Of a DNA stretch of 64,000 nucleotides, positions 4,827 through 51,600 are shown piece after piece. The notes under the pieces are model-generated. The model ran no database searches. It saw only the letters and a list, made by a program, of their open reading frames with translations, and was not told the DNA's origin. Within the stretch, counting starts at the first letter, position 1; every line of letters starts with the position of its first letter. The stretch covers positions 399,672 through 463,671 of the forward strand of contig CAYNQD010000001.1 in assembly GCA_964399295.1 (NCBI GenBank), read 5' to 3'. This DNA comes from an uncultured Candidatus Saccharibacteria bacterium (GTDB taxonomy: Bacteria > Patescibacteriota > Minisyncoccia > Phycocordibacterales > UBA918). The position numbers were made by a program, and so were the translations under genes.

Positions 4827-4843
4827 TTAGACCATGAAAAACC

Positions 4844-5578
4844 TCAAAAATCAATGAATTTTTCATCATCGTCTGGTTGGAATAGTAAATAATCACGCCA
4901 CTTTTTATAAAGAGCTACAGTAGCAGTGACATCACCGGCGTTGTAGCGAGCGAGGTCGCGGAACTTTTTGCTAGCAAAAAGTTCCGCGACCTCATCGCCG
5001 CTCCCTGCCACCTTAGGACTATCAATCCCAAACGCTCGACAAAATAAATGTAAGCTTGGTCGTCTGGTCATCGCTCCGTAAAAAGTCAGCTCGTCTTGCA
5101 AATCAACGTGCCGACAACCCCTCTGCTGTGATGGATAGCGCCCTTCCATCAAGTTTTTAGTCGGCTTAACACCACACACTACCGACCGATGAAGCAAAAA
5201 CGGTACGTCAAATACTCGCCCATTGAAAGTAACAAAAGTATCATAATGCCGCGCTCCATCCCAAAATTCGGCCAACATTTTAGCCTCGCTTCTTTCCTTA
5301 TAAGTGTAAGCTCCGTCGACAGTATCTTTCTCCGTGCCATTTCCAGAATAATAAACCACTCCCTTTTCCCGTTCCAAATCATAAATCCCAATCGCCACCA
5401 CAAAGCCAGTAAGCGGAGAAAAGCCCAAACCGGCTTTCAAGTCGGTTAGTAAGAGTTGTTTTTCTTCCGAATTTTTGGCCACTCTTTCCAGCCATCTGCT
5501 CAGGGTACTTTTAGTGATCTCATCAAAATCTTCCCAATTTTCACCGACAGTTTCGATATCAAAGACTAGCGTCGCCAT
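4844..5578 (-). CDS. Predicted 3'-5' exonuclease related to PolB exonuclease domain (RNase H-like, DEDD)
   Basis: 244 aa; N-terminal FDIETVG Exo I motif, YDxxxL and later YxxxD-like motifs; matches COG3298-type architecture. Confidence 0.75.
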   Translation of the reverse strand: MATLVFDIETVGENWEDFDEITKSTLSRWLERVAKNSEEKQLLLTDLKAGLGFSPLTGFVVAIGIYDLEREKGVVYYSGNGTEKDTVDGAYTYKERSEAKMLAEFWDGARHYDTFVTFNGRVFDVPFLLHRSVVCGVKPTKNLMEGRYPSQQRGCRHVDLQDELTFYGAMTRRPSLHLFCRAFGIDSPKVAGSGDEVAELFASKKFRDLARYNAGDVTATVALYKKWRDYLLFQPDDDEKFIDF

Positions 5579-27645: not shown

Positions 27646-27650
27646 AGGTT

Positions 27651-30600: not shown

Positions 30601-30935
30601 CTACTGGTATCTGTACACACAACATTACTGCTGGAACCAGGATCAAAGTCAGCAATAGTCCGATTGGTCATCTCCTTTATTTCCACGATAGCTCTGACAG
30701 TAGTGGTTGGAGAACCCACCGCTATCACATTGTCATAACGATATTTCGCACCCACCGTAAGAGCACCTGAGCCAGTACCATTTATATATGTCCCACCAGT
30801 GAAATTAAGTTGCTTAAACTCCGTATCATAAATCGGCGCCAGCTGCGCCTCAGATTTCTGTGGCGCAAAAGAAAAAGCGATTATAAAAATGAGACTATAG
30901 GCGATAGAAATTCTCATGTATATGCATTGTAGCAA
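27651..30935 (-). CDS. Large secreted surface protein with Ig/FN3-like beta domains and two C-terminal peptidoglycan-binding (PG_binding_1-like) domains
   Basis: 1094 aa; signal peptide; T/S/G-rich beta modules shared with the 1256-aa paralog (GCKDPKASNYNHFTSHKQELCQY block); C-terminal DGVYSLEDMEAVKRFQQ and ELGFYSG...NFQQ PG-binding-like repeats; 5 bp upstream of A2M gene. Confidence 0.7.
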   Translation of the reverse strand: MLQCIYMRISIAYSLIFIIAFSFAPQKSEAQLAPIYDTEFKQLNFTGGTYINGTGSGALTVGAKYRYDNVIAVGSPTTTVRAIVEIKEMTNRTIADFDPGSSSNVVCTDTSSGNPNQCVSAANQANWFILTTGASGGGSNVRGHIKLEFSFINQADDTPLRLQNVAVNSFDIDGTGSTAPTGSHPTLNFTPPTFSDGAVNQFTEFGGFQLSELSTGTLDPYESPSVLYPSYNALTGLTTFVSLTNLNNNQAPGTAAGDRFRVRVLYDELSVFEISMGSYSNASTFGLQFALGPQWASPPEMTRTPELTLSLGEKDRTIEFSGEPITFSENGEIFPLTTGLSNPGNPGEFLNDPAPIVSGTIDNLKINYTLASIQPGERLLIDGVDMSISLSNKAGGTFSLAGVPWKYASSTAGAVKTLTFTKDGAGKNTRAQYEALLNALQYYNSAPNEAVREFELTIEDAGYTSPTAVFTIDILEDAEPDIAESMIKVSPTSTLQAELNQTLNDNLVVRVSDEEGNDVVGADVVFAITSGTGLLGAPTTVQTNSSGTATFSGGWTLNSLGEHVVTATLYGVGNTVTFNAIGSVGAVPVISDIETFPGTSGATITWLTDELASTKVVYSTDNQYASSTSETDTDSGVLEHSKSISNLLACTLYNFKVISADEDGNYATSSPSTFLTTGCSGGAVPSSVISNSINVSAPTVVTGTNSGRAFTVDAPAGFTDDWASIVIQIKGLDSATVLGSIGKPFSSLSSAASVVFDVKALVNNVTELDSFDHPVTISYTYTDADVNGLDENSLSMYHYAGGVWQELDNCSVNTATNTITCTAPHFSIFAIFGNSLALAGDNNETNGRSSTRMSGITFGCKDPKASNYNHFTSHKQELCQYKIAQSDTTQPIPTKSVAVDSVCAPHIKTYIRYGADNDVEDVRKLETFLNEKQGEALAVDGVYSLEDMEAVKRFQQKYASEVLNVWGVAEPTGYVYRTTLMKINSFYCSASITCPAFTEHNSLTENPVSTEVVKTKTLLTELGFYSGVVNNTFDNSLDISLKNFQQTFSDTMLKPWGLTSGTGYKYKTTNKFLNMLVGCQTPAVELDGRGTFDY

Positions 30936-32914: not shown

Positions 32915-35653
32915 TTACCACCACAATCCAGACAGTCCTGCAGCTTTCATTTGTGCGCGAGTGATAGGTCCGAAGTATCCGACAGCTGGCGAGATACCGT
33001 TTGCAGCTTGATATGCTGCGAGAGCTGATCGTGTTTGGTTAAGGAACAGGCCGGTTGCTCCAGCTGGAATTGAGTGTCCCTGTCCAATGAGAAGAGTCTG
33101 GAGAGCTACAACATCAGCACCTTCCATTCCATATTTAAGGTCTCGGACAAAAAATGCTGGTGCGGTAATTCCGAGCAGGTCTAGAATATTCTGTGGAAGA
33201 GATATACCCATACTGTGTGCTCGAAGAAGCATGTCACGATGTTGATTAACAAGGTTTTCTACTGTTTGAGTTGGTCGTTGACCTACAATGTGAGAGCTCG
33301 ATCGTCGTGTTCGTTGTGAAGGAGACACGATTTCTTCTTCAGTCGGCAAAGTGGGTTCTACTTGCGTAATGACAAAAAGCTCAGAGAAGACGACGAGCCC
33401 CAAACGAGATAGATTGTATGAACCAGAAATTCCTCCTACCAACTGGCCAAACATAGACTCCATACCTTCATCAAAATACTCATCTTCACTTTCTGACTGC
33501 CTAGTCCACGAGGTACCATTATCGAGCGAAGAATACACCACTATCCGATACCAGAGTAATTCATCGTCATATGCATCCATGCGGTTTTCTACCACAGCCG
33601 CGACTACCCCCTCACCTGTCGCTGAAGGAGCGACATATATCCACGAGTGATCTCCTGGGGCAGTACTCGTGGCCCACGATAATCCCTTATCGCTGGATAT
33701 GTACATGTTTCTGGCGAAGGCATCGATGACAAAAAATCTCTCCGCGTCTTTCGAGACCATCACTGAGAAAGGAATAACTTCTTGGTCAAGATATGAAAGT
33801 ATCGGCTCCCACGTTTCTCCATAATCATGAGAAACAATCACTACTGCCATTTCAGGATCTCCCATCATGAGCATAGGGCTCATTGCAAGCATAATTGTTG
33901 AACCATTTGCTGAGGCAGAAATTGAAGAAGGAAAAACGAACGATTCATTGGAAAGGCTGAGAGGGAGCATGTCTTCCCAATCCTCTCCTCCATTGTTCGA
34001 ATATATCACTTTGTTAAATAATGCAACATATATATGTGACAAATCACTTGATGCGGTGATACGTGAAAGATACAATGCCATAAAAGTAAGGTAGTCATCG
34101 CCAAACTCTTCCATATCATCCATTGCAATAGTTGATATTACTTGGATGTCCCAACTCTCTCCGCCGTCTACAGAACTGACAGCAATAAAATTAACTTCAT
34201 CGCCTATAAGGCTAGTGACGCCTACTGCCATTATCTTCATCCCATCTGCAGAAGACGTGACAGATGTAAGGAGTATGTCTGGAGAAGAGGTGCTGAGTTC
34301 CCAGCTCTCTCCGCCGTTGGCTGACACATATATGACAGTAGAAGGATACTCTTCCTCGCCAAGTAGTCCATGTCCTGTTGCTACTAGTCGGCTCCCGTCT
34401 GAAGATACCGAGATTGATGTCCATATATGATTTTCAAAACCTTCTAAGTGTTGCTCGAGCATTTCATATATAGAACCTTCTGGAATATCATTGTCGTCTC
34501 CAAAATCCTCTTCTATCGGCTCCTCAATGGTGGTGAAGCTCCATGAAGAACCGCTAATACCTGGGTAAGTATTGTCATCAGCATCAACAAACGCCGTATC
34601 AGGGATAACCACTAGATACTCAGTTCCATATTCAAATTCAGATATCGGACTGATTGTCACCTCATTACCGTCAATCGTAATACGATCGCTATCTATATCG
34701 AAGGACTCGAAAAGTGAATCATCTTCTGCTCGATAAATACTAATTTGTCCTGTCGATGTCGCAACGGTTGAGGTACTGAAGCTAAGAACGAGGTTGGTTG
34801 AAATAGCCACATCTTCTGCATTATCAACCGGAGAAAGTGTCGCTGAGATTGTTCCTAGTGATGCATTTGAATTTTCTGCCGCCTCCTCCTCGGTAATTGC
34901 CCGACTGTAGATCCGCACATCCTTCACATCACCCTTAAACCATCCCTGATTGTTGCTGCAGCTTGGGGCATCTATACCAGCAAATACATATACAGGATCA
35001 TCAGCTGCAGCATAGGCAGTCATCGCACTAGAAGCAACTTGCACACCATTCACATACAAGTCTAGTGTTTCTGTTTCGGGAGACCAAGTGTTGGCAATGC
35101 TATACCACTCTCCGAGCACCGCTGGCACAGAATTGACGGCTGTGACAGGAGTACCGTCCCATCCTATAGCGCGAAAATGTCCGTTCTGGATATGGAGCAT
35201 AGAAATACACCAACCCTGTCCATTTCCACCATTTGGACTGTTTGATATATGAATAATGTTCCCACTTTCACTTTCATCATTTACACGAACGGAAGCGGAT
35301 AGAGTATAGGCCTGATTGGACACGCCCATAGATTCCGTGAGAGGAGAATCGGTTCGGATGTAATCATCAACCCCATCAAAGGAAAGGCCTCCGTTTAAAA
35401 TCCAAGTTGGACCGCCATAGAGTGTACCCGGGTATCCGGTCAACGCTCCGGTTGTCCCCCCTTCTCCTTCATCAAGTGGCCAATAGAATTTCAAATCATC
35501 ACCAGCATGTGCACCAGAGACTGCGATAAAGAAAATTACCGCGAGACAAAAAGTTGTAGTAATAAAATATTTCCAGTTTTTCATTATGATTATTATTGTA
35601 TCATGACTAAATAAAATATGAACGTCATGTCCAAGTGCAAGAAATAATTGCAA
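32915..35653 (-). CDS. Large secreted surface protein: LamG/ConA-like lectin domain + BNR/Asp-box beta-propeller repeats + C-terminal peptidoglycan-binding domain
   Basis: 912 aa; N-terminal TM/signal; LamG-like YWPLDEG...FDGVDDY; six SxDxGxTW Asp-box repeats (SANGGESW, SVDGGESW, SNNGGEDW, SHDYGETW, SSDKGLSW, SLDNGTSW); C-terminal LKYGMEGADVVALQTLL...GYFGPITRAQM PG_binding_1. Confidence 0.75.
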   Translation of the reverse strand: MQLFLALGHDVHILFSHDTIIIIMKNWKYFITTTFCLAVIFFIAVSGAHAGDDLKFYWPLDEGEGGTTGALTGYPGTLYGGPTWILNGGLSFDGVDDYIRTDSPLTESMGVSNQAYTLSASVRVNDESESGNIIHISNSPNGGNGQGWCISMLHIQNGHFRAIGWDGTPVTAVNSVPAVLGEWYSIANTWSPETETLDLYVNGVQVASSAMTAYAAADDPVYVFAGIDAPSCSNNQGWFKGDVKDVRIYSRAITEEEAAENSNASLGTISATLSPVDNAEDVAISTNLVLSFSTSTVATSTGQISIYRAEDDSLFESFDIDSDRITIDGNEVTISPISEFEYGTEYLVVIPDTAFVDADDNTYPGISGSSWSFTTIEEPIEEDFGDDNDIPEGSIYEMLEQHLEGFENHIWTSISVSSDGSRLVATGHGLLGEEEYPSTVIYVSANGGESWELSTSSPDILLTSVTSSADGMKIMAVGVTSLIGDEVNFIAVSSVDGGESWDIQVISTIAMDDMEEFGDDYLTFMALYLSRITASSDLSHIYVALFNKVIYSNNGGEDWEDMLPLSLSNESFVFPSSISASANGSTIMLAMSPMLMMGDPEMAVVIVSHDYGETWEPILSYLDQEVIPFSVMVSKDAERFFVIDAFARNMYISSDKGLSWATSTAPGDHSWIYVAPSATGEGVVAAVVENRMDAYDDELLWYRIVVYSSLDNGTSWTRQSESEDEYFDEGMESMFGQLVGGISGSYNLSRLGLVVFSELFVITQVEPTLPTEEEIVSPSQRTRRSSSHIVGQRPTQTVENLVNQHRDMLLRAHSMGISLPQNILDLLGITAPAFFVRDLKYGMEGADVVALQTLLIGQGHSIPAGATGLFLNQTRSALAAYQAANGISPAVGYFGPITRAQMKAAGLSGLWW

Positions 35654-37217: not shown

Positions 37218-38495
37218 ATGAATACACAACCACTCACATGGCGAACGGAACAGCGAAAGGTCAGCGACCTCGTACCGAACGCCAAGAACCCTCGCTCACT
37301 CTCTGCACAACAAAAAGCAGACCTTGAAGCGAGCATTACTAAGTTCAACATTGCCGAGATCATGGCTTTGAACACCGACAACACGGTGCTGGCGGGTCAC
37401 GCCAGACTTGTTGTGCTGAAGGCGCTCGGACGCTCTGATGAAATGATCGATGTTCGCATTCCTTCTCGGACATTAACAAAGGAAGAGTGCGAGGAGTACA
37501 TGCTCCGCTCGAACCGCAACACTGGCTCGTGGAATCATGAACTGCTTCGTGCTTTTGATACGTCTTTCCTTCTCTCGATCGGATTTGACGATGTCGACTT
37601 GTCGGACATCTGGGAGGACGTACTTGAAATTGAAGATGATGATTTCAAGGAAGAGGATGCGGTTGAAGAAGCCAAGGACACCGACATCAAGAACGGTGAT
37701 CGGTTTCAACTTGGAGATCACCTGCTTGCGTGTGGCGACAGCACGGACCAGACAGTCGTGAAGAATCTTGTTGGCGACAAGAAAATCGATATGGTCTATG
37801 TTGACATTCCATACAATATAAATTTGAGCTACAACAAGGGATTAGGTGGAAAATCCCACTATGGCGGTGATGTCGACGACAAGAAATCCGATACTGAATA
37901 TCGTGCATTTGTGAAGAAACTCATGGAGAACGCTCTCGCGGTCTCCGCAAAGGATTCGCACCATATCTGGTATTGCGATTCAAGCTATGTGGGCATGATG
38001 CAATCACTCTTTGCAGAAGTTGGCATCGCATACAAGCGCACCGCATTGTGGATCAAAAACGGCATCAACTGCACTCCGAAGATAGCATTTTCGAAGATGT
38101 ATGAGCCGGCCTTGTACGGAGTAACCGGACGACCATACCTTTCACCAAAGCACACGAAATTCGGCGAGGTGCTTAACAAGGAGGTTGGTATCGGTAACGC
38201 AACGATTGATGACATCACAGACATGATTGATATCTGGCTCGCAAAGCGTGATGCGGGTCAGGATTATAAACATCCAACGCAGAAGCCACTCTCGCTTCAC
38301 GAGCGACCGCTCAATCGTTGTACCAAAATCGGAGATGCGGTCTTGGATCTTTGTGGTGGTAGCGGATCTACACTCCTAGCCTGCGAACAAATGAAGCGCA
38401 AAGCGTTTTTGGTCGAACGCAGTCCAGTATTTTGTCAGGTAATCATCAACCGCTATGAAGACTCCAGTGGAAACAAAGCAGTCAAGCTCAATTAA
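37218..38495 (+). CDS. ParB-like nuclease domain fused to beta-class N6-adenine/N4-cytosine DNA methyltransferase
   Basis: 425 aa; N-terminal ParBc-like (VSDLVPNAKNPR...), then LGDHLLACGDSTD, DIPY (motif IV), HPTQKP, DLCGGSGST (motif I) in beta-class order. Confidence 0.85.
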   Translation: MNTQPLTWRTEQRKVSDLVPNAKNPRSLSAQQKADLEASITKFNIAEIMALNTDNTVLAGHARLVVLKALGRSDEMIDVRIPSRTLTKEECEEYMLRSNRNTGSWNHELLRAFDTSFLLSIGFDDVDLSDIWEDVLEIEDDDFKEEDAVEEAKDTDIKNGDRFQLGDHLLACGDSTDQTVVKNLVGDKKIDMVYVDIPYNINLSYNKGLGGKSHYGGDVDDKKSDTEYRAFVKKLMENALAVSAKDSHHIWYCDSSYVGMMQSLFAEVGIAYKRTALWIKNGINCTPKIAFSKMYEPALYGVTGRPYLSPKHTKFGEVLNKEVGIGNATIDDITDMIDIWLAKRDAGQDYKHPTQKPLSLHERPLNRCTKIGDAVLDLCGGSGSTLLACEQMKRKAFLVERSPVFCQVIINRYEDSSGNKAVKLN

Positions 38496-39252
38496 GCACG
38501 GAGATGTGGTTCGGCTTGGCGACCACATTCTCTATTGTGGCAACGCTCAGGATGTTGACCTTGCAACGCTCCTTGAGGGCAGAACTATTTCCTGTCTTGC
38601 GTGTGACCCTCCGTATTCAGTAGATTATGCGGCCAGCAAGCGTAGTATCGGCAAGATTGCAAAAGATAAAGATATCGCAAATGACGGATTCATGACAGCT
38701 GAGGAGTATGTATCGTTCACGAAGTCGTGGATCTCGCCCGCATTGCCACATCTCTCAAAGAAGAACAGCATCTACGTCTTCAACTCGGACAAGATGATCT
38801 TCGCACTTCGACAGGCATTTGTGGAATTGGATCTGAAGGTCGCTCAGCTCATTATCTGGGTGAAGTCTCAGCCAATTCTCGGACGGCTCGACTATCTCCC
38901 ACAACACGAGTTGATCCTCTACGGCTGGAAAGGTACCCACGAGTGGCGACGTGGGAAGGATAAGTCAGTGATGTTTGCGCCGAAGCCATCGCGAAGTGCA
39001 CTCCATCCAACAATGAAGCCTGTCTCGCTCATGCGTCGAATTATCCTTAACGCCACTCGAGTTGGAAGTGTTGTCTATGACCCCTTTGGTGGGAGCGGTA
39101 CCACGCTAATTGCCTGCGAACACACCAAGCGTCGATGCATCATGGTCGAGATGGATCTAGAACACTGCGAGACAATCGTAAAGCGGTGGGAAAAACTAAC
39201 TGGTCATGGCACGGAAATCATCAGATCCGAAGGAGCGGAGCAAGCGGTTTAA
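38455..39252 (+). CDS. Beta-class N6-adenine/N4-cytosine DNA methyltransferase
   Basis: 265 aa; LGDHILYCGN, DPPY, HPTMKP, DPFGGSGTT; overlaps upstream gene by 41 nt. Confidence 0.85.
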   Translation: MKTPVETKQSSSIKHGDVVRLGDHILYCGNAQDVDLATLLEGRTISCLACDPPYSVDYAASKRSIGKIAKDKDIANDGFMTAEEYVSFTKSWISPALPHLSKKNSIYVFNSDKMIFALRQAFVELDLKVAQLIIWVKSQPILGRLDYLPQHELILYGWKGTHEWRRGKDKSVMFAPKPSRSALHPTMKPVSLMRRIILNATRVGSVVYDPFGGSGTTLIACEHTKRRCIMVEMDLEHCETIVKRWEKLTGHGTEIIRSEGAEQAV

Positions 39253-39634
39253 AACAAAACTGCTTGAACACCTCAAGGACTCCGGCAACGTCAGCTACGC
39301 CTGCAAGCGAGCAGGTATTTCTCGCGAAACCTACTACAAGTGGCGCAGGAGCAAAGTATTCGCTGAGGAAGCTGATGTGGCAATCGACCTTGGTAAAGAG
39401 TTTGTGAATGACTTGGCGCACACGCAACTCATTCAAAACATTCAGCAGGGACACATGGGTGCGGTGAAGTTTCAGCTGGCTAGCTGTCACATAGACTACC
39501 AAGCGAGAAAACCATGGCCTCGTGAACTACCAACTGCTCCGCCTCCAGTAACCGAGATTCATATCCATCCAGCCGAACCGATGGAAGTGCGAGAACAACA
39601 AGCGAAGAAGCGAGCGGAGGCTAAAGATCACTAG
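39206..39634 (+). CDS. HTH DNA-binding protein, phage terminase small-subunit-like
   Basis: 142 aa; SYACKRAGISRETYYKWRR helix-turn-helix typical of terminase small subunit/transposase-like HTH. Confidence 0.45.
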   Translation: MARKSSDPKERSKRFKTKLLEHLKDSGNVSYACKRAGISRETYYKWRRSKVFAEEADVAIDLGKEFVNDLAHTQLIQNIQQGHMGAVKFQLASCHIDYQARKPWPRELPTAPPPVTEIHIHPAEPMEVREQQAKKRAEAKDH

Positions 39635-40364
39635 CCAACACTTCAACAATATTCTTCCAGTCTGAGGTAGACATTCCAAAAGAAGTCGCGTGAGGGACCA
39701 CGGCATACAATGTGCCGTGGTTCTTTGCTATGTGGAGTTTCTTCGGAATGATTTCTTCAAACGGTATGCTTGCGATTTGTTGCCAATCTGAAAGATAAGT
39801 ACGTGAGTAGAAGAGGACGAGTTTTGGTTTATGCCTGTGTATCAATGCTTGGAGTTGGTGTGCTCGTCTTGGTTTGTATGTTTTTAGATACTCCTTGCGA
39901 GAAGCTAATCCCTCAATATTAAAATCACCATACAGCCAGTCTGCTTCTTTGATTGATTTAGACGGCAACGGCATGAGTTCCAAGACCGTGTGGTCGGATT
40001 TCTTTCTTCCGAATGAACCAATCTGAAACTGGCGAATTTCTTCGAGTGTTGGTTCTTTGCCTGTTGTTAGATATAGGTGAATGTATATGAGTGGTCGGTA
40101 TGTTTTCTGTGTCGGTGCATTGTCTGCAAACCAGCGTAAATGATCGGGGCTGGTCTGCATGTCTTCCACGATGTCGCAGACTATTTTGTCGCTGGTAGTT
40201 TTGAATCGCTCATAGAGTAGATTCATTGAACCATCAAAACCCTCTTCCATACCGACAAACCAAATATCACTTTCTAGATTGCCATAGCCAAAAAAGTTCT
40301 TGATTCGTTTTTGGATTAATATTTCAAAATCGTCTCCGTGAGGAGACTGGGTGTTGTCATTCAT
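39621..40364 (-). CDS. Hypothetical protein (possible paralog of 40675..41256; weak UDG-superfamily-like pattern)
   Basis: 247 aa; IWFVGMEEGFDG and C-terminal VVPHATSFG loosely resemble UDG motif A/B positions; low confidence. Confidence 0.4.
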   Translation of the reverse strand: MNDNTQSPHGDDFEILIQKRIKNFFGYGNLESDIWFVGMEEGFDGSMNLLYERFKTTSDKIVCDIVEDMQTSPDHLRWFADNAPTQKTYRPLIYIHLYLTTGKEPTLEEIRQFQIGSFGRKKSDHTVLELMPLPSKSIKEADWLYGDFNIEGLASRKEYLKTYKPRRAHQLQALIHRHKPKLVLFYSRTYLSDWQQIASIPFEEIIPKKLHIAKNHGTLYAVVPHATSFGMSTSDWKNIVEVLASDL

Positions 40365-40674
40365 TTTTCCCTACTAGGATTTAGTTGTGCGGAACCTTCA
40401 GGTAATCAAAAGGCTCCCAGCCATCGCGATCCAACCTTTCGGCCAGACCCATACCTGTTTCCAGATATGACCTAGTAGAGTGACTCTGACTGGGAGTCCT
40501 TTGATCTCTACTAGGTTTTTGCGCCATACCTTAGGAAACCCTAAGGGTTAGGCGACTATATTCAATTGTCGTACGAGTACATAATACCAAAATCGGTATC
40601 ATTTGGCACTTTAGCTTACATTCGGAGCTTTGCGAAGTAGCTGTTACCAACACATTCACGTATACTCTATAACC

Positions 40675-41256
40675 ATGTATTCCCGAGAAAAGTATGAGAA
40701 TTTGAAGGCAAAATATGGGGAATACGCCAGTTGGGCTATTTGGAATGAAAAAGACGAGCGTGATACTTCTGTTATAGATGCATCTTTTGAACAGCTATCT
40801 CCACATTATGTATTCATTGGTCTGAACATATCAGCTCCACTACGAGACTCTTCTTGGGCGAATTTTCGTGGTGGCAGACATGATCGAAAACTTAAGTACG
40901 CTTGCAACAATACTGCATTGCGTGGCTCATACCTTACTGATCTCTTTAAAGGAATACCTGAAGCAAAGTCATTCAAGGTAAAGGGGATGCTTACCAATGA
41001 CATCATTCAGGAAAATGTATCCTTCTTTCAAAACGAAATGGATGATATCGGATTGGACAAGGAATCTGTTCTTATCCTTCTCGGCGATTTAGCAACGCGA
41101 TATTTTGATGAACATTTTCGAAAACTCTTTACTAATTCGACCATAAGTTACCGCCACTACTCATCGTATGGAACCGATCGTGATTGGGTTGAGGGTTTAT
41201 GGAATCAACTTGATGTTGATGGCGATTTTGATTCTATCAAACTGAAAAGTAGTTAG
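40675..41256 (+). CDS. Hypothetical protein (divergent partner/paralog of 39621..40364)
   Basis: ORF track start 40630; Met at 40675 (MYSREKYENLKAK) plausible; YVFIGLNISAP...YLTDLFKG...H.SSYG pattern parallels upstream-divergent gene. Confidence 0.4.
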   Translation: MYSREKYENLKAKYGEYASWAIWNEKDERDTSVIDASFEQLSPHYVFIGLNISAPLRDSSWANFRGGRHDRKLKYACNNTALRGSYLTDLFKGIPEAKSFKVKGMLTNDIIQENVSFFQNEMDDIGLDKESVLILLGDLATRYFDEHFRKLFTNSTISYRHYSSYGTDRDWVEGLWNQLDVDGDFDSIKLKSS

Positions 41257-41275: not shown

Positions 41276-42685
41276 TCAATCTATCTTGTAGTAGGAATAC
41301 ATGTCTTTTAATTCCAGTCCTAAGCCAACCACATCCAGTCTATCCTTCCTATCATCAAAGAGAGCGTTGATTAAGTGTTTTCTCTCTCGATCAACAGCCA
41401 GATGTATTTGCCGGTGACAACGTGGACAGAGTGTCACATAGTTCGCAAGTACTTCGATAGAGTGAGAGAAATCATTTCTAAATTCACGAGGAATCAAGTG
41501 ATGTAATTCTAGATAATTTTTCCCATTTGCCTTTGCTGTAAAATAAATTGGACTACAATTATTCATGGTTTCCAGAGCACAAGTATATCCACTTTGAATC
41601 CTGGCTTGCCGCTTACGCAGGTTGTAAACAGCTTTAATTTTTTGCTTACCCTCTTCACTAGTTTCGTCAATATAGTCTTCAGCAATATCATGATCCTCAA
41701 CTTCAATCGAGTGATCCTCTACTCCCACCACATCTGAGATTGCCATCTCAATTTCCTCAAGCTCAAGAATTTCGACAAAGATTGGATCAAACACATTCTT
41801 GTTTTCCTGTAGGTAGGTCAAGACTCGATTTCGATCTATAGGAGCAATGGAGGTATTGTAATTGCCAACAAAAACCTCCGGCAGGTTTGCCATGTTTGGG
41901 TCTTTGGACCGGATAAGGAAAAGGGTTAGGAGGAACACTTTTGTCTCATCAAGGAGCATGTTGTGATTGAAGTTGCCACTTGGTTGGTACTTCTTCGATA
42001 TGCAACACGCAAAGGTTTCCGTGCTGATATTACTCTCAATGTATTGAGCTAACTCCTCACGCTCTTCTTCAGTTGATCGCAGGTAACCTATAAGAAAATC
42101 TGAGTCGTCATAAAAAGAATGGATGTAGAAGAATGGACTTCGAAGTGCCGTGCTTAGTGATTCAGATGTAAGCAATTGTTTTGCTGAGTCAGTAAGCAAT
42201 TCTTCGGTCACTCCATCGGTGCTCAGTAAAAATCCAAGCAGATCTTCTTTAACCCGGTAGACAATATAGTTTTTTCGGTTTGTGTAATATCCATTCAACA
42301 AGAACAGGTAGTTGAGTAACCACTTTTCGGCACTCTCAAAATCATTTTCTATAAACTGACCATAGAGTTGCCCTTTTGTGGTCCTGCTATATAAGTCATT
42401 TACATCCTTTCGAAAGAGCTTCGATTGGATCATGTTTATGACGTGATGCTTGTGCTTCTCCTGCCCGTGTCCCTGTCGAGGCCACTGATCTCTTGGCATG
42501 TTTTCTACCTCAAGAAAAGTAGTGAACGCATCAATGAATGCTTTCTGTGTTCTGAAGTTCGTGTTGGTGTATTCAAACATTCTTCCGGCAGCACCCTTAC
42601 CCAAAGAAGCGTGGTTTTTAAACCACTCTTGATTAGCATTTTTCTCTTTGTATATATCTACTAAACTCATGTGTTTGTTTCGCAA
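41276..42685 (-). CDS. HNH endonuclease-domain protein (putative restriction endonuclease)
   Basis: 469 aa; C-terminal LELHHLIPREF...VTLCPRCHRQIH HNH/zinc-finger motif; large N-terminal domain; operonic with two D12 MTases. Confidence 0.7.
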   Translation of the reverse strand: MRNKHMSLVDIYKEKNANQEWFKNHASLGKGAAGRMFEYTNTNFRTQKAFIDAFTTFLEVENMPRDQWPRQGHGQEKHKHHVINMIQSKLFRKDVNDLYSRTTKGQLYGQFIENDFESAEKWLLNYLFLLNGYYTNRKNYIVYRVKEDLLGFLLSTDGVTEELLTDSAKQLLTSESLSTALRSPFFYIHSFYDDSDFLIGYLRSTEEEREELAQYIESNISTETFACCISKKYQPSGNFNHNMLLDETKVFLLTLFLIRSKDPNMANLPEVFVGNYNTSIAPIDRNRVLTYLQENKNVFDPIFVEILELEEIEMAISDVVGVEDHSIEVEDHDIAEDYIDETSEEGKQKIKAVYNLRKRQARIQSGYTCALETMNNCSPIYFTAKANGKNYLELHHLIPREFRNDFSHSIEVLANYVTLCPRCHRQIHLAVDRERKHLINALFDDRKDRLDVVGLGLELKDMYSYYKID

Positions 42686-43677
42686 ATGAACAGAAGTTCT
42701 TTGTGGTCTTTAAAGTCCGTCTTGCCACTGTTGAAGAATTTGTGGGCTACCTCTTTACGCGTGACCTTACCCCTAGAGGAAAGGGTATCTACCAACTGCT
42801 CCTCAGTGATCTTATTGTTTGACGCACTGCTCTTTGCAGAGTAGGTATTATTGTAAGATACAACGATTATTTTTGCCTGCAAGTTATCGATCAGATCTTT
42901 GAACACTTGGGGGGCCTTTGCTCGTGAGTATTCGCTCTTTAGTTCGTCTCTCTTAAATTTCATGGATGTCCCCTCGAATTCTGTTGGTTTATTCCAACGG
43001 ACCAAGTTCTCTAGTACGTGATAGAAGTTTACATACTGACGTGCATTGTACGGCGGATCGATATATGCGATATCACAAGTGATGCTACGTACGAGCTTAT
43101 TAGCATCTATGTTGTGCATCATTGCCGTCCCTGTGAATTCCTCTAATTTTGGGAGGCGTAAATCCACACCTTTTTCTTCTGGAGCTTTTGAGAGAAAGTG
43201 CTCGAAGTGTCCCACTGTATTGGCGATTTTATCTGCGGTATACATGAGTGCAGTAAGTAAAATATACCGCTCTCGCTCGGTAAGTCGGGTATTTGCTATT
43301 CGTTCTCGCAGATATCCGATTTTCTTGGCATCCGGCTGAGAGAAGTACTTACCTCCGTATATTTTTGAGAAGTAATTTGCCTCCAAGTCATTGCCGTCTA
43401 TTGCATTGAATTCTGCAACGATCCTCTTGAGCTTCTCTTTGCTGTATTTTCCAGTACCAAACCACGCCTGGTATGCAATGTAATTCGATCGAAGGGTGTC
43501 GTTTACAATCACATCCATTCCTTTCTCCAGCATATAGTTTGCGACCACACCAGTACCAGCAAACAAGTCAGCGAATACCACCTTTCCGTTGCAGAAAGGT
43601 TCGATGCTGTCGTAAATGTTGTTCAAGAGAGAACTTTTACTTCCAGTATATCGTCTGTTGTTAATTAATAAGCTCAT
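42667..43677 (-). CDS. D12-class (Dam-family) N6-adenine DNA methyltransferase
   Basis: 336 aa; N-terminal RYTGSKSSL, DLFAGTG (motif I), DPPY (motif IV). Confidence 0.85.
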   Translation of the reverse strand: MSLLINNRRYTGSKSSLLNNIYDSIEPFCNGKVVFADLFAGTGVVANYMLEKGMDVIVNDTLRSNYIAYQAWFGTGKYSKEKLKRIVAEFNAIDGNDLEANYFSKIYGGKYFSQPDAKKIGYLRERIANTRLTERERYILLTALMYTADKIANTVGHFEHFLSKAPEEKGVDLRLPKLEEFTGTAMMHNIDANKLVRSITCDIAYIDPPYNARQYVNFYHVLENLVRWNKPTEFEGTSMKFKRDELKSEYSRAKAPQVFKDLIDNLQAKIIVVSYNNTYSAKSSASNNKITEEQLVDTLSSRGKVTRKEVAHKFFNSGKTDFKDHKELLFICETNT

Positions 43678-44602
43678 AATTCGTAATCAAAATTTCGCGC
43701 TCAGCCGCTTGTCGGTTGATCTTATTATAGCTAGCACTGCGGTAGTGGTAATTGATGTCCCAAATCTGCCAGTCATTTCGGTTAAAGGTGCGCACCCATT
43801 CCGATAATGGATTGTTGGTTGCGCCCACTTTAGTGAGTACGTTGGAAAGTGCAAACTTCTTCCCTTTCCTATCAAGAGCTTTTAATAGATCGATCAGTTC
43901 GTGTTCGGTTTCTTCTGTCCAATTTCCTGCCTCGTTGTAGACAGCATCCCCTACCAAGTATGGAGGATCAGCATATATAAAATCTGCCTTAAAGAGAATG
44001 TCTTGAATCTTTTTATCTCGGAAGTCGCCGCATATAAATTTGTAATTGATCTTTTGTACTCGATCTATGTACTGGGTTAGCTTTCGGATGTTGCTGTTAT
44101 TCAGATCGGTTTTCCCGACTGGCAAATTGAAGTCTCCGTCCCGATTAAATCGCATGTCATTGTTAAATGCATACACTACCAGCAAGTAAAGGAGATCGAA
44201 TGCTTTCTTTGAGGATTTATTTTTAAGAGCATTATAATCATCACGTAGTTTGTAGTACCCCTCTGAGTTGTATGCCTTGAGTCCGTTGTTGTCTGCTTTG
44301 GGAATACCTTGGCGGTATGTTTGATATCCGTACTTTGCAGAGTATGACAGTCCGTACTTTTCAACGAGTTTTTCTAGTCTCGGTAAAAGTTTTTCAATGG
44401 TTGAGACCGCTAAGTGTTGAAGCAGACCAATCACATTCTCGTTGTTGTCTATAAAAATAACTTTCTTTGCGTTTACACTTAGTCCTACTGTCGCGCCTCC
44501 GCAAAATAAATCTACAAATGTATCAACCTCTTTAGGAAATCGAGTTGCAAACTGTTCCATTAACCTTGACTTGTTTCCTGTGTAATTGAGTGGTGTTTTC
44601 AT
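43661..44602 (-). CDS. D12-class (Dam-family) N6-adenine DNA methyltransferase (second copy)
   Basis: 313 aa; NYTGNKSRL, DLFCGGA, ADPPY. Confidence 0.85.
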   Translation of the reverse strand: MKTPLNYTGNKSRLMEQFATRFPKEVDTFVDLFCGGATVGLSVNAKKVIFIDNNENVIGLLQHLAVSTIEKLLPRLEKLVEKYGLSYSAKYGYQTYRQGIPKADNNGLKAYNSEGYYKLRDDYNALKNKSSKKAFDLLYLLVVYAFNNDMRFNRDGDFNLPVGKTDLNNSNIRKLTQYIDRVQKINYKFICGDFRDKKIQDILFKADFIYADPPYLVGDAVYNEAGNWTEETEHELIDLLKALDRKGKKFALSNVLTKVGATNNPLSEWVRTFNRNDWQIWDINYHYRSASYNKINRQAAEREILITNYELIN

Positions 44603-44616
44603 AAATAAAATATTTT

Positions 44617-44814
44617 CTACCTCGCCTTTCGTGAGGTGCCATTCTCATATCGTCGAAGGAAACTATCGATATCAGACCGCTTAATTCGCCATTGTCCGAT
44701 TTTGAACGCCCTAAGCCTCTTCGCTTTAATGTAGCGCATAATCGTTCGATCACTTACTCTCAAAGTTCTCGCTGCTTCCTTTACGGTCAGTACTTTTTCA
44801 GCCATCATAGGCAC
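44617..44814 (-). CDS. Excisionase-family helix-turn-helix DNA-binding protein
   Basis: 65 aa; LTVKEAARTLRVSDRTIMRYIKAKRL MerR-like excisionase HTH; divergent from serine recombinase. Confidence 0.65.
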   Translation of the reverse strand: MPMMAEKVLTVKEAARTLRVSDRTIMRYIKAKRLRAFKIGQWRIKRSDIDSFLRRYENGTSRKAR

Positions 44815-44947: not shown

Positions 44948-46240
44948 TTGTGTTGTATGGAAAAAACACAACAAACGGAGGTTCTACGGTACTGCCTCTA
45001 TGCACGCAAAAGTACCGAAGCGGAGGATAAGCAGGCTCTATCCATTGAGTCCCAAGTAAAGGAAATGCAGTCCTTAGCGGAGCGAGAGCAACTTAATATC
45101 GTGGAAACCAAGAGAGAGTCCCACTCCTCTAAAGAAGTAGGTCAACGTCCGGTATACAACCAGATGCTCAATGAAATACGCGAAGGTAAGTACAATGCCA
45201 TCCTTACGTGGGCACCAGATAGATTAAGTCGTAATGCGGGAGACTTGGGATCGGTGGTAGACCTCATGGACCAGAAGCTTCTGCATGAGATACGCACCTA
45301 CGGACAGAAGTTCACGAACAACCCAAATGAGAAGTTCCTGCTGATGATCCTCGGGTCACAGGCAAAGTTGGAGAACGACAACAAGGCGGTCAATGTGAAG
45401 CGAGGACTACGAACACGCTGTGAAATGGGATGGAGACCAGGAGTAGCTCCTACCGGATACTTGAATGAGAAGCATGTCGATAAGAAATGTCAGGTTCGGA
45501 TTGATCCGAAACGAGCACCCGTCATAAAGCAGATGTTTGAGAAGGTAGCGTACGAACACTGGAGCGGACGGAAAGTGTACCGATGGCTACGAGAGATTGA
45601 TTTCAAGACCCATCGCGGAAAGCCACTGGTGCTAGCGAACATTTATATAATCCTGAGAAATTCGTACTACCACGGTGACTTCGAATACCCTGTCGGAAGC
45701 GGACAGTGGTATACCGGCAAACACACACCGATTATAGATAAGGATTTATTCGACAAGGTGCAGATGACGCTCAATGAGAACTACATACCCAAGACTGAGA
45801 GCAAGGAGTTCGCCTTTACCAAGCTCATACGATGCGGATATTGCGGCTCAGGGATATCGGCTGATGAAAAATTCAAGAAGCTGAAGAATGGCGGTGTGAA
45901 TCGCCATGTCTACTACTTCTGCTCTAAGTCACGGAATATCGACTGCAAGAATCCTTATATCAACGAACCGAGTCTGATTGAAGAACTAATAGGTCTGATG
46001 GATACGGTAGACCTAGATGAGCTTGGAGTACGTGGCAGGATAGAAGATGAGATCAGACGGTTCAATAAATTCAGGTCGGGAGTACTGGGGCACAAACAAG
46101 ATAAGGTGGAGATAGATGTGGACGTACGAAACTATACAAAGTACCTACTGCGAGAAGGAACGCTACTAGAAAAGCGAGAACTGCTCGGATGCCTACAAAG
46201 CAAACTTTTCCTGAAAGATAAAAAGATTGGAATTGAGTAA
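44948..46240 (+). CDS. Large serine recombinase (resolvase catalytic domain + recombinase domain + zinc ribbon)
   Basis: 430 aa; catalytic YARKST near N-terminus; recombinase-domain and CGYCGS...C..C zinc-ribbon region. Confidence 0.85.
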   Translation: MCCMEKTQQTEVLRYCLYARKSTEAEDKQALSIESQVKEMQSLAEREQLNIVETKRESHSSKEVGQRPVYNQMLNEIREGKYNAILTWAPDRLSRNAGDLGSVVDLMDQKLLHEIRTYGQKFTNNPNEKFLLMILGSQAKLENDNKAVNVKRGLRTRCEMGWRPGVAPTGYLNEKHVDKKCQVRIDPKRAPVIKQMFEKVAYEHWSGRKVYRWLREIDFKTHRGKPLVLANIYIILRNSYYHGDFEYPVGSGQWYTGKHTPIIDKDLFDKVQMTLNENYIPKTESKEFAFTKLIRCGYCGSGISADEKFKKLKNGGVNRHVYYFCSKSRNIDCKNPYINEPSLIEELIGLMDTVDLDELGVRGRIEDEIRRFNKFRSGVLGHKQDKVEIDVDVRNYTKYLLREGTLLEKRELLGCLQSKLFLKDKKIGIE

Positions 46241-48635: not shown

Positions 48636-51600
48636 TTACCACCACAACCCAGAAAGCCCTGCCTCTTTCATCTGTGCACGAGTAATTGGCCCGAAGTAGC
48701 CACCCCGTGGCGCGATACCGTTCGCAACCTGATACGCATCAAGTGCATACTGAGTTTGAGTACCAAAGTAACCTGTTGCCCCAGCCGGTATAGAGTACCC
48801 TTGTCCAATAAGAAGCGTCTGGAGTCGACGAACATCTTCCCCGTCCATACCATATTCAAGATCACGAACAGATAGTGATCCATTCTCAACACCAAGCATG
48901 ATAAGAATATTTTGTGGTAATACAATACCAGCTTCATGTGCCCGGATAAGTAAATCTCGATGCTGATCAACTATTTTTTGCAGGGCTTGTTCAGGGCTAT
49001 CGTACTTACATAACTCCTGTTTGTGTGCTGAAAAATACTCATAGTTAGAAGCGTTAGTATCTTTGCAGCCAAAGTGTGTACCACCAGTTGTCCGACTACC
49101 TGTAGGTTCTTCTGTTTCAGGACTAGTGCCAAACAATCCAAAAATAGAGAATGATGGAGTCGTACAAGAAATAGAGTTTGCATCAGTATCTAGTACACAG
49201 TCATTGAGTGCTATCCATTGCCCTCCGGTGTAGTGATAGAGCCAGAGTGTTGATTCATCGATACCCGAGACTTCATCTTCAGTGTATTCGTAATCAATTG
49301 TTACTTCAGTATCAAACGAATCGAAAATAGTATCACCATTTACAATTGCTTTTACATCAAATACCGTAGCGCCAATTTCATTTGGTGCCGAGCTTGGACG
49401 TCCAAGTGCGGTGAGTACTGCAGTGTTTGGTACTGCCTTTACCTGGATAACAATTGTTGAGTCAACAGGAGCATCTGCTGTTACTGAAAAAGTCTTTGCA
49501 TTTTCAGTCACATTGGTCGTGCCAGTGTTACCAGCATATATTGTGGTTGAAGTAGCTGTTGTTGGTGTAGCATTACCTGTACAACCAGTCGTGGTAAATG
49601 TACTGTCTGTTGACGTAGCAGTATTGGACGCACCATCAGTTGAAACAACGGCATAATGATACATAGTACAAGACAACAAACCAGAAAGATTTACTACATG
49701 CTCAGTCACGCGTGGTGATGTATTGATTTCAGCAGTAGTGGTTCCGTACAAATTAGTTAAACCATAAGATACCTTTGAAGAAGCATTCTCATCAGTAGTC
49801 CAAGAGATTGTAGCTCCTGAATCAGAAATTGATGATGCGACAACTTCACTAACTATAGGATCATCAGCATCTTCTTCCGGCTCCTCAGAACCGGTCCCAA
49901 GACTGAACATTTCTCCAGGAGTAAGGGCTCGATTATAAACTCGCACATCGTCAATATAGCCATCGAATGGTCCTGAACTTCCGCCATCTTGTACCCCAAT
50001 ACCAATAGAGAAATTATCTCCCGTACCGTAATTATCAGTAGGACTATCTGAAGATATGCCTACTTGGTCGCCATCAACATACAAGATCACATTTTCACCA
50101 TCACCAAGACAGGTAATATGGTGCCAAACATTGAAAAATGTTTCAGGATCATAAGTCCAATTCACCTCACCATGAGGTGTCCAGCACCTTAGTTGGTTGT
50201 CAGTGGTGAAAAAGAATTCAAATACATTATTTGCTCCAAACCAACCCTCGTTATCTGCAGCGGAACGTGGATATGCCCAACCAGCTAGAGTAAATTCAGG
50301 ATAATTGTTGAGAGAGAGTGAAGTGGTGATTCCGTCATTTACACCATCAAAATTCAAGCTATGAGAATCTGTAAACTCCACATCTGGAGGTGTAGTCGTG
50401 GAATATGAGGCACCGCTAATAGTTCCATTTTTACGATTAACAGTAGAATCAAGTGCCGTACTTCCTGATCCTTCGTCAAATCTCCAGTAAGCTACGAGAG
50501 AGTCATCCCAAGTCTGCCCAGTCGTTACAGCAACGGTTGCTTCAGCAGAACTTGGAGAAGGGTCTATATATCCGTCAGCTGGAACGGCATTTATACTATG
50601 ACTCAAAGTGGTACTAGCATTCACAGCCGAACCAACTGTTGCTTCAACAGTGACGGTAGCCACCTCCCCATCATCTAAACTAACTACAAATGAATCAATA
50701 TCAGATTCATCTCCAGAACCTGAATCAGCACCAGTCGAGGTGTAGCTCCAAATCACATCAGTGAATCCTGTATGTCCGATAACCATATCGTTGGTCACTG
50801 TTACCTCACCAGCATCATTTGGACCATTGTTAGTGACCGTATACGTATATTCTAAAGTGTCGCCATATCGATATGTACCATCTGGAGCATCAGTGACAGA
50901 AACGGCAATATCTGTCGGTAGAGACACTTGCAGATTGTCTATCGCATGAATGTTTGTTGATCCGCCTGTACCAGCTGTAAAGCCAAGTTTAAAGAAGTCT
51001 GGCGGCACGTCGTCATAAGCATAATCATCAATCACTGTGTGCCATGTTGCTCCATCGTCCCAACTCATCTCAACCCGAATTACCGCACCAGAGTCATTTG
51101 GTGATATAGATATTCGAGCCCTTCTCCACCCTCCATCAATTGTTTGACTGATTGGTGAATCCGATACTCTTGTGTGAGTTAAGTAGTTATATCCACTAGT
51201 TCCATTTCCAGACCCGCGTAAAGTGACGTTATCTGGAGCAGAACTTCCAATCCCAGTTTTTCCACCACCTGCTACAGGAAAACCTCCATACTCATCAAAT
51301 CCAACTCCAAGATATGCATGAGGTACTCCGGGAGTACTGCCACTAAGCGCATATCCAAGCGAAGAACCAAAGGCACCAGCTGCGATATTACCAACATTTA
51401 CCAAATCTCCATCCACCAAAAAGAATGCGAGACCATCTGCACCGGTTCCACCACCAGAGTAGTAGTCGAACTCAACAACAATACCGTTATCAGAAGAAAA
51501 AGCGGTGTCATAATATCCTAGTCCAGCTTGACTAGTAGCGGCAGTAGTGAGACGCAAGGTTTCTTCTGAATCTACCACAGCTCCCCAGGACGCACTACTA

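Follow-up and report, generated by a model that had tools for sequence, protein, structure and literature searches.

Two diverged proteins with a predicted uracil-DNA glycosylase fold and a LOOT-containing leader on a defence-carrying integrative element of Patescibacteria

We analysed a stretch of 64,000 nucleotides from an uncultured Candidatus Saccharibacteria bacterium (contig CAYNQD010000001.1, positions 399,672 to 463,671), hereafter the window, in which two open reading frames (ORFs) of no annotated family, ORF-A (39621..40364, minus strand) and ORF-B (40675..41256, plus strand), lie head to head inside a mobile block. Coordinates are those of the window unless they follow a locus number. 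We propose that the two genes encode two new families of base-excision enzymes of the uracil-DNA glycosylase (UDG) superfamily, that they are carried by an integrative element which also carries defence genes, and that they act on foreign DNA in a way similar to the Brig antiphage glycosylases. We assign this reading a probability of about 0.5. Each protein would flip a base out of the DNA and cut its N-glycosidic bond, leaving an abasic site, and both would serve as base-excision effectors against foreign DNA, probably DNA with modified bases, as Brig1-3 do. ORF-A would be expressed behind a leader of about 290 nt, in which an alternative pairing can cover the region just before the start codon, while ORF-B would act from a variable slot beside a restriction-modification (R-M) cassette made of an HNH gene and two Dam-type methyltransferase genes.

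ORF-A encodes 247 aa from an ATG and ORF-B 193 aa, also from an ATG. The longest frame of ORF-B opens further upstream, at an in-frame TTG at 40630, and would give 208 aa; the 193-aa form is backed by the starts of all homologues and by an exact 193-aa database match (P0121). The divergent arrangement described in an earlier note, which was made from the letters of the window, is thus found with ORF-A at 39621-40364 on the minus strand and ORF-B at 40630/40675-41256 on the plus strand, about 310 bp apart. In a database clustered at 90% identity ORF-A has 173 matches and ORF-B 54, the latter being also found in 157 metagenomic loci, and a profile of ORF-A retrieves 1810 clusters at 50% identity, 1103 of them at E<=1e-10. 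Close relatives of both come from Paceibacterota, Parcubacteria and other Patescibacteria, which places the window in a genome of the candidate phyla radiation. Because these homologue families are conserved, ORF-A and ORF-B are genuine genes. Neither has a match in Pfam, NCBIfam, PHROGs or PADLOC, so that the view of the earlier note that they fit no defined family holds for these four curated libraries. Its view that they are paralogues does not. Direct comparison by BLASTP gave E=12, and the family profiles, built from alignments of 37 sequences for ORF-A (A1) and 34 for ORF-B (A2), were related by hhalign with a probability of 0.4%, over 17 columns that comprise the C-terminal H..S.G..DW stretch alone. 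Recent paralogy was rejected on these values, and the two proteins are separate families within one superfamily, not recent duplicates. DNA and protein searches of phage GenBank records returned no match, and a plasmid collection yielded only distant ORF-B-like hypothetical proteins, in contexts that were uninformative or mixed.

The assignment to the UDG superfamily comes mainly from structure prediction. AlphaFold2 models computed from the family alignments were confident for both proteins (pLDDT 92.4 and pTM 0.90 for ORF-A, pLDDT 89.8 and pTM 0.89 for ORF-B), and both display the alpha/beta fold with a central parallel sheet that is found in UDG, MUG, TDG, SMUG1 and family-4 structures. When the models were compared with the PDB by Foldseek, the top 50 matches of ORF-A were exclusively UDG-superfamily chains. 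The best was human TDG (4fnc, E 3e-4, probability 1.00, TM-score 0.45-0.59), and the further ones were UdgX, the family-4 UDGs of S. tokodaii and T. maritima, and MUG, including entries 4zby, 1l9g and 8iiq. The best match of ORF-B was SMUG1 (5h98, E 1.5e-3, probability 0.99), followed by the Bradyrhizobium UNG (BdiUNG) and human SMUG1, then by UNG and poxvirus D4. Since the match lists are homogeneous for both proteins despite modest scores, they support a UDG fold for ORF-A and ORF-B. The UDG-like fold that had been suspected in the earlier note is therefore what confident models, with UDG structures first among their matches, point to, and we consider it very probable that both proteins adopt it.

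A link at the level of sequence was obtained for ORF-B through an intermediate family that we call B'. Its reference member, a 174-aa protein encoded in locus L033 18 bp downstream of an ORF-A homologue, bears the motifs GLNPS, GSYMTDL and GHPNSY and passes the Pfam UDG model PF03167 (E 5.5e-7, 30.2 bits against a cut-off of 24.3); most members of the B' family have a precomputed PF03167 assignment. ORF-B matches this protein by BLASTP with E 2e-8, and the two families match by hhalign with a probability of 99.0% (E 3e-18, 143 columns), in an alignment that superposes GLN-x-S, GSY(L/M)TDL and the His of motif B. As ORF-B resembles B', and B' passes the Pfam model, these comparisons place ORF-B in the UDG superfamily as a diverged member by transitive homology. 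The corresponding link appears weaker for ORF-A: PF03167 is matched weakly by 7 of the 66 relatives in a diverse ORF-A alignment (A4; best E 7e-5), and no other family recurs among them. Neither protein of the window reaches the PF03167 gathering score, and profile searches of PDB sequences (A1, A2, A3 and A4) gave matches at chance level only. A weak match to the McrB N-terminal domain in that search was at chance level and was not credited.

UDG enzymes act through two loops: motif A, a Gly-rich loop that immediately follows strand 1 and bears the water-activating Asp, Asn or Glu, and motif B, which follows the last strand and opens with a His or Asn. Read from sequence and predicted secondary structure, both proteins have counterparts of the two loops, with Glu in ORF-A and Asn in ORF-B after strand 1 and a His in both after the last strand. 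In ORF-A, strand 34-42 ends in G38-M-E40-E41-G42, an invariant loop of non-canonical residues in which E40, invariant across the wide family, occupies the position of the catalytic Asp/Asn. The near-invariant F54 follows 14 residues past E40, where UDGs have a base-stacking aromatic residue, strand 2 holds L-E129-L-M-P-L-P, and the putative motif B is P-H225, after strand 218-222, which becomes P-H-P-x-A in the wider family. The invariant or near-invariant positions of ORF-A thus comprise W35, the loop G38-M-E-E-G42 with E40 and E41, E129 and H225. In ORF-B, strand 42-49 ends in G49-L-N51-I-S53, with N51 invariant as in MUG, TDG and SMUG1 and with F47, N51 and S53 all invariant or nearly so. 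W61, N63 and F64 are invariant past motif A, strand 2 ends in SYL-T88-D89 with T88 and D89 invariant, and the putative motif B is H161-Y-S, after strand 155-159, with an invariant H161 (H-P-N-S in B'). On this anatomy and on the models, we lean towards both proteins being active glycosylases.

The earlier note had listed three short motifs common to the two proteins, and two of them correspond to these loops. The first one, F-V-G-M in ORF-A and F-I-G-L in ORF-B, is found where predicted strand 1 ends in the two models and coincides with UDG motif A. The last one, the C-terminal H..S.G, comes after the last strand in both (H225 in ORF-A, H161 in ORF-B) and coincides with UDG motif B; it is the sole stretch that hhalign aligned between the families, in an alignment that by itself is not significant. 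The middle one, YL(T/H)(D/L), was a chance match: the SYLTD of ORF-B is conserved on strand 2, whereas the YLTT of ORF-A (98-101) is helical and unconserved, the strand-2 counterpart of SYLTD in ORF-A being LELMPLP (E129).

Comparison with the characterised UDG families sets both proteins apart. Family 2, with E. coli MUG and human TDG, gives the best structural matches of ORF-A, at 8-12% identity in the structural alignments. Its Asn-type motif A, GINPG, resembles the G-L-N-x-S of ORF-B, whereas ORF-A has Glu-Glu in place of Asn-Pro, and the Asn of MUG motif B is a His in both ORF-A and ORF-B. The best structural matches of ORF-B belong to family 3 (SMUG1) and family 1 (UNG and poxvirus D4), to which its identity is only 10-13%. 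SMUG1 has GMNPG and HPS-type motifs, where ORF-B has GLNIS and HYS and B' has GLNPS and HPNS; the Pro of both motifs is thus absent from ORF-B, which also has D89 where UNG has its uracil-reading Asn. Family 4 UDGs and UdgX are again structural matches of ORF-A (4zby, 1l9g, 8iiq). The family 4 UDG motif is HPAA, and the P-H-P-x-A of the wider ORF-A family resembles it, but motif A reads GE(A/G)PG in family 4 against GMEEG in ORF-A. The set of four Cys that holds the 4Fe-4S cluster of family 4 is found in neither protein, ORF-A having one Cys (C63) and ORF-B one near-invariant Cys (C77).

Closer in presumed function are Brig1, Brig2 and Brig3, UDG-superfamily antiphage glycosylases that lie far below detection by curated models (PMC11078745; 10.1101/2025.10.29.685425; 10.64898/2026.02.25.707755). 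Brig1 was identified from an AlphaFold model that matched UDGs; it excises alpha-glucosyl-hydroxymethylcytosine from the DNA of T-even phages and protects against these phages, and its E147, which stands in for the usual Asn of UDGs, lines an enlarged base pocket together with the aromatic Y121 (PMC11078745). Brig2 targets hypermodified thymidines, and 27 integron UDG-like proteins have been assigned to 11 sequence clusters (10.1101/2025.10.29.685425), while Brig3 excises 5-hydroxymethylcytosine (10.64898/2026.02.25.707755). ORF-A and ORF-B are like Brig1-3 in being single-gene, unannotated UDG-fold proteins that are recognisable only by predicted structure, and in being located in defence islands or near mobile elements. 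They differ in that ORF-A belongs to the backbone of an integrative element and is preceded by a structured leader, and in motif A, which is GLNPG in Brig1 and GMEEG in ORF-A. Comparison of the ORF-A and ORF-B family profiles with the Brig1 sequence, a test of low power with its single template, gave hhalign probabilities of 0.2% and 0.3% and a BLASTP E of 2.2, and membership of the Brig1 family is not supported by these values. The sole stretch that hhalign aligned between ORF-A and Brig1, in a match that is not significant, puts LELMPLPS (E129) on NFELYPWHS (E147). We take this alignment as a lead and not as evidence of Brig membership. Judged by residues, ORF-A combines a near-invariant E129 in a Brig1-like local motif with a near-invariant F54 after motif A. 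We therefore class ORF-A and ORF-B as new families of the UDG superfamily that may be Brig-like in action, and not as members of the Brig family, with Brig1 as the member used for the sequence comparison.

The two genes differ in their relation to the element. On the ORF-A side lie a gene for a ParB-like N-terminal domain fused to an N6_N4 DNA methyltransferase (37218..38495, plus strand), a second N6_N4 DNA methyltransferase gene that is confined to one backbone variant (38455..39252, plus strand) and a gene for a 142-aa helix-turn-helix (HTH) protein with weak matches to HTH_Tnp_1_2 and to terminase small subunits (39206..39634, plus strand), which is convergent with ORF-A and overlaps its 3' end by 14 bp. 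The ParB-methyltransferase and the HTH protein belong to the backbone. On the ORF-B side, and convergent with it, lies the gene for an HNH-motif protein of 464-469 aa, the probable restriction component of a cargo cassette (41276..42685, minus strand), followed by two D12-class (Dam-like) N6-adenine methyltransferase genes of the same cassette (42667-43677 and 43661-44602, minus strand) and by that of a 63-aa HTH_17 protein, excisionase- or controller-like (44617..44808, minus strand, transferred from the identical contig L001, 13579-13770). A large serine recombinase with Resolvase, Recombinase and Zn_ribbon_recom domains (44948..46240, plus strand) marks the other end of the element. The setting that the earlier note had described, between a methyltransferase cluster and an R-M system, is therefore confirmed, with two N6_N4 methyltransferases and the HTH gene on one side and the HNH/two-D12 cassette and the recombinase on the other. 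The run from the HNH gene to HTH_17 (41276-44808, minus strand) looks like an R-M cassette of type II/IIS style that includes a controller or excisionase, and in PADLOC the HNH protein only weakly matches a type IV methyl-directed enzyme (E 5e-7).

We then compared 87 ORF-A loci, a set that leaves out the copies of the window itself (L001-L003), by tblastn and gene clustering. A conserved module was found in Patescibacteria and DPANN, in which a serine recombinase (minus) is followed by ORF-A (plus), HTH (minus) and one or more ParB-methyltransferases (minus). The HTH and methyltransferase module is present in 28 of the 87 loci, and a serine recombinase lies nearby in 25. The recombinase stands about 400 bp from ORF-A in many loci, so that the minimal element measures about 4.5 kb. 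In other elements the space between them is filled by differing defence cargo: type I R-M (L004, L011, L023), type III R-M with a Dsr1-like protein (L013), a methyltransferase, a DUF262-type nuclease, an AbiL/PDC-S06-like protein and DinG (L029), PifA (L015), an OLD/Ppl-like ATPase (L032), Hachiman HamA with a helicase (L175) or toxin-antitoxin-like genes (L007). The window has ORF-B in this slot, together with the HNH gene, the two Dam-type methyltransferase genes and HTH_17. From the conserved order of the loci and the position of ORF-B in the variable slot, ORF-A is a backbone gene and ORF-B is cargo. The Patescibacteria and DPANN loci form a family of elements with a fixed backbone (recombinase, LOOT leader and ORF-A, HTH, ParB-methyltransferase) and a single cargo slot, and a recombinase with the Resolvase, Recombinase and Zn-ribbon domains of large serine recombinases stands at one end of the variable block. 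No convincing direct repeat was found among candidate att-site flanks, and neither helper phage nor transfer genes were seen in the element loci. Defence-cargo hotspots are known from integrative elements and phage satellites, which likewise have a conserved backbone with one variable defence slot; the element described here differs in using a large serine recombinase and in occurring in Patescibacteria and DPANN.

A defence-type role is plausible because this element family carries defence cargo directly beside ORF-A and because of the Brig precedents, and the defence, anti-defence or modification-handling function that the earlier note had suggested for the pair can likewise be called plausible. 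Taken one by one, a role in defence is close to an even question for ORF-B and more tentative for ORF-A. At the methyltransferase end, a LexA-like gene (HTH and S24 peptidase) flanks the element in L010, L016, L017, L027 and L028; it could belong to the element or indicate a site where the element inserts preferentially. The window has a META-domain gene at this place.

Between ORF-A and ORF-B lies a feature on which the earlier note was silent. Alignments, nhmmer searches, a minimum-free-energy z-score of -5.3 and covariation delineate a structured 5' leader of ORF-A of about 290 nt (40365..40662, minus strand). Its DNA is conserved across loci whose further upstream sequence is unrelated, and in about 45 Patescibacteria loci detected with an nhmmer profile it ends no more than about 10 nt from the ORF-A start codon. 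The leader contains the core of the LOOT RNA (Rfam RF03000; 40428..40554, minus strand), matched over its full length with 87.4 bits against a gathering score of 46.4 (E 3e-17); the only Rfam matches in the window are LOOT and a tRNA-Gln. LOOT is also found above the gathering score 5' of ORF-A in L004, L007, L010, L017, L175 and L179. Additional copies of LOOT were found in these neighbourhoods ahead of other genes, at 13565-13688 in L047 before a zinc-ribbon protein gene and at 7450-7570 in L051 before a secreted protein gene, with a further copy in L012 (1854-1993). LOOT is thus not confined to ORF-A, and action in trans is conceivable as well. The LOOT motif comes from the screen of Weinberg et al. 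2017 (PMC5737381), and a literature search gave no functional description of it. Rfam lists LOOT as an sRNA gene without known function, whereas here it is embedded in a longer leader directly 5' of ORF-A-family genes; compared with the Rfam model, this leader has an extra pseudoknot and a start-proximal alternative pairing, which points to cis-regulation.

The structure was evaluated on 26 leaders. For the six helices together, 93.8% of cells were paired, compared to 34-49% when the partners were slid, and 33 of the 46 pairs change on both sides, so that helix support joins the gathering score in placing the core in RF03000. The LOOT hairpin (40471..40515, minus strand) is formed by a 5' arm, CCUAGUAGAG (40506-40515), and a 3' arm, CUCUACUAGG (40471-40480), with 96.8% of cells paired and changes on both sides in 8 of 10 pairs. 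A pseudoknot helix (40407..40503, minus strand) is formed by pairing of the hairpin loop (40487-40503) with a segment at 40407-40423 that lies 3' of the Rfam LOOT model boundary; it has 16 pairs, 94% of cells paired and 10 pairs changed on both sides. A copy of the hairpin 5' arm, CCUAGUAGGG (40369..40378, minus strand), is located 4 nt before the ORF-A AUG. Of the 26 leaders, 23 have such a copy, with 12 arm variants among them, compared with 40 of 3759 control 9-mers (1%). Its complementarity to the cognate 3' arm is at least 90% in 23 of the 26, a level reached by 8.5% of non-cognate combinations. The pre-AUG copy can thus replace the 5' arm as partner of the 3' arm, and the three-way covariation of 5' arm, 3' arm and pre-AUG segment is therefore the pattern that marks mutually exclusive pairings across the start region of translation. 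The hairpin is formed and the start region open in the minimum-free-energy fold. With its fixed 5' position, its location on the same strand and its exclusive pairings at the start, the leader has the attributes of a cis-regulatory one, and the pre-AUG copy is a candidate for an expression platform or for a switch at the ribosome-binding site.

At the 5' end of the leader, two invariant hexamers with a 17-nt spacing, TT(A/C)GCA and TAnnnT (about 40631-40636 and 40608-40613, minus strand), look like a promoter of the leader; a simple promoter scan of the intergenic region gave results at chance level. The ORF-B start codon at 40675 lies about 13 nt beyond the conserved leader block, and the ORF-B promoter must therefore overlap this region on the opposite strand. 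A wider scheme would make the LOOT leader a ligand- or RNA-responsive switch that gates the translation of ORF-A, with ORF-A as the constant effector of the element family, joined in some lineages by B or B' in attacking foreign DNA that is modified or unprotected, and with the ParB-methyltransferase marking self. We regard this scheme as rather unlikely; if true, the orphan LOOT RNA would gain a function and a new base-excision immunity module would be defined.

A UDG-type gene adjoins ORF-A in two arrangements, divergent with B in the window and tandem with B' in L033 and L175-L181. In the tandem arrangement, an ORF-A homologue and a Pfam-positive B' of 171-174 aa lie 18 bp apart behind one LOOT leader (L033, 3483-4774; L175, 5249-6525; L179, 5249-6516) and look like an operon of two UDG-type genes, which in L175-L181 is found inside full recombinase/methyltransferase elements. 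Among the 87 ORF-A loci, only L033 has a B-type gene, of type B', and none of the 81 B loci outside the window's element has ORF-A; B and B' are also found alone. The term "paralog pair" of the earlier note is thus not supported in this respect either, since most A loci lack B and no B locus beyond the window's own element has A. We take A with B or B' to be two base-excision-type genes that have repeatedly come to lie together, and not the two subunits of an obligate system. Around ORF-B itself, neighbourhoods in other loci are variable, with recombinases, R-M components and small HNH genes recurring, and a search for a conserved partner across the ORF-B loci found none. The ORF-B-like hypothetical proteins of plasmids, at 27-30% identity, come from L. 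paracasei pMGB0734-2 (L188), Butyrivibrio pCY186 (L189) and an Arthrobacter plasmid (L190). Their contexts, one each, are a position directly after a gene for a WYL-domain regulator, a region with ssb and many small ORFs, and a position beside nrdIEF and an exonuclease gene, the last being that of the Arthrobacter plasmid. In L185, a 170-aa protein (4553-5065) whose gene overlaps the start of B' by 4 bp bears a PD-(D/E)xK-like signature (D...E-C-K) and may be a nuclease partner that cuts at abasic sites.

Several observations weigh against Brig-like action on foreign DNA. The Foldseek TM-scores are modest (0.4-0.59) and the E-values merely 1e-3 to 1e-4. ORF-A of the window has no Pfam UDG match of its own, its family is not significantly related to the PF03167-positive B' family in profile comparison (0.1% and 4.5%), nor is its family profile significantly similar to Brig1, and its GMEEG is unlike the motif of any characterised UDG family, so that catalysis is assumed. 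ORF-A homologues at 30-35% identity stand in ordinary chromosomal surroundings without recombinase or methyltransferase, the module being wholly absent around these homologues (in cyanobacteria, Chloroflexota, Bacteroidota and Proteobacteria), and they suit a repair role at least as well as defence. Some relatives of ORF-B adjoin housekeeping-type genes (a HAD hydrolase, a DHH protein, nrdIEF), and a gene that belongs to the backbone of all elements might work for the element itself and not for the defence of the host. Part of these observations would be accounted for if ORF-A and ORF-B were ordinary DNA-repair glycosylases that happen to be on a mobile element and clear the DNA of host or element of bases damaged by deamination, oxidation or alkylation. 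They might, for example, add to the few repair functions of Patescibacteria or shield the DNA of the element on entry. The UDG superfamily serves repair by default, and besides the distant chromosomal homologues of ORF-A such a role agrees with the nrdIEF and exonuclease genes beside the ORF-B-like gene of the Arthrobacter plasmid and with the DNA polymerase III gamma/tau genes that adjoin B' in L182 and L185. However, the distribution is patchy, the linkage in Patescibacteria to recombinase/methyltransferase elements and defence cargo is tight, the catalytic loops are non-canonical, and so elaborate a regulatory leader would be unusual for a constitutive repair enzyme; we therefore consider repair unlikely, though a serious alternative.

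The linkage of ORF-A, HTH and methyltransferase in 28 loci, always in the same convergent layout, would also fit a glycosylase-based R-M or addiction module in which ORF-A, as the restriction half, excises an unmethylated base, the ParB-methyltransferase or methyltransferases protect and the HTH protein controls. The minimal element, a recombinase and three genes, is like a mobile R-M unit, and if the enzyme is toxic, its translation would need to be held tightly in check, as the leader could do. R.PabI is a restriction glycosylase with a half-pipe fold; such enzymes resemble the proposed module in using base excision as restriction beside a methyltransferase but differ from it in not having a UDG fold. 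Yet ORF-A similarity does not follow the type of methyltransferase or HTH: in L010 an ORF-A at 84% identity is combined with a single methyltransferase at 43% and an HTH protein at 34%, whereas in L011 an ORF-A at 85% is combined with a two-methyltransferase module at 90%. This uncoupling disfavours a specificity-matched R-M pairing, as do ORF-A homologues below about 45% identity, which have no neighbouring methyltransferase. ParB-methyltransferase fusions are moreover usually orphan enzymes of phages and plasmids, in keeping with the PHROG matches seen here, and we judge a restriction module improbable. Even less probable is that ORF-A is a non-catalytic UDG-fold protein that binds DNA for the element, as a directionality factor or as a replication or packaging accessory like vaccinia D4. 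Serine integrases have directionality factors of diverse structure, many of them moonlighting proteins, ORF-A is the constant gene of the element family, and minimal elements place it directly beside the serine recombinase and divergent from it; but acidic and His residues at the catalytic positions are near-invariant over more than 1800 clusters, most without a recombinase nearby, and cargo is inserted between ORF-A and the recombinase without apparent constraint. The idea put forward in the earlier note, in which A and B are a duplicated pair acting as one two-subunit system, could draw on the two arrangements of adjoining UDG-type genes and on the N- and C-terminal motifs common to both proteins, but the absence of sequence similarity, the near absence of shared loci and the single occurrences of B and B' make it very improbable.

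Two unannotated families, of which ORF-A stands for more than 1800 clusters at 50% identity, hereby gain a fold and a testable chemistry, which extends recent work showing that highly diverged proteins with a UDG fold can be antiviral glycosylases. The loci also define an element architecture in the little-studied candidate phyla radiation (CPR), with a serine recombinase, a defence-collecting slot and a fixed module of ORF-A, HTH and ParB-methyltransferase. The association of ORF-A with the LOOT leader is the most novel and the most directly testable result, as it ties an orphan Rfam motif to a specific downstream gene family and an apparent expression platform and so makes its function testable.

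Further from the element, the window contains very large ORFs of 2162, 1094, 912 and 1256 aa (21157-30935, 32915-35653 and 48636-52406, all on the minus strand). Domain scans of the 912-aa ORF and of a homologue of the 1256-aa ORF detected Laminin_G/ConA-like and peptidoglycan-binding domains, with BNR repeats in addition in the 912-aa ORF; these large ORFs are typical of CPR surface proteins and have no bearing on the genes described above.

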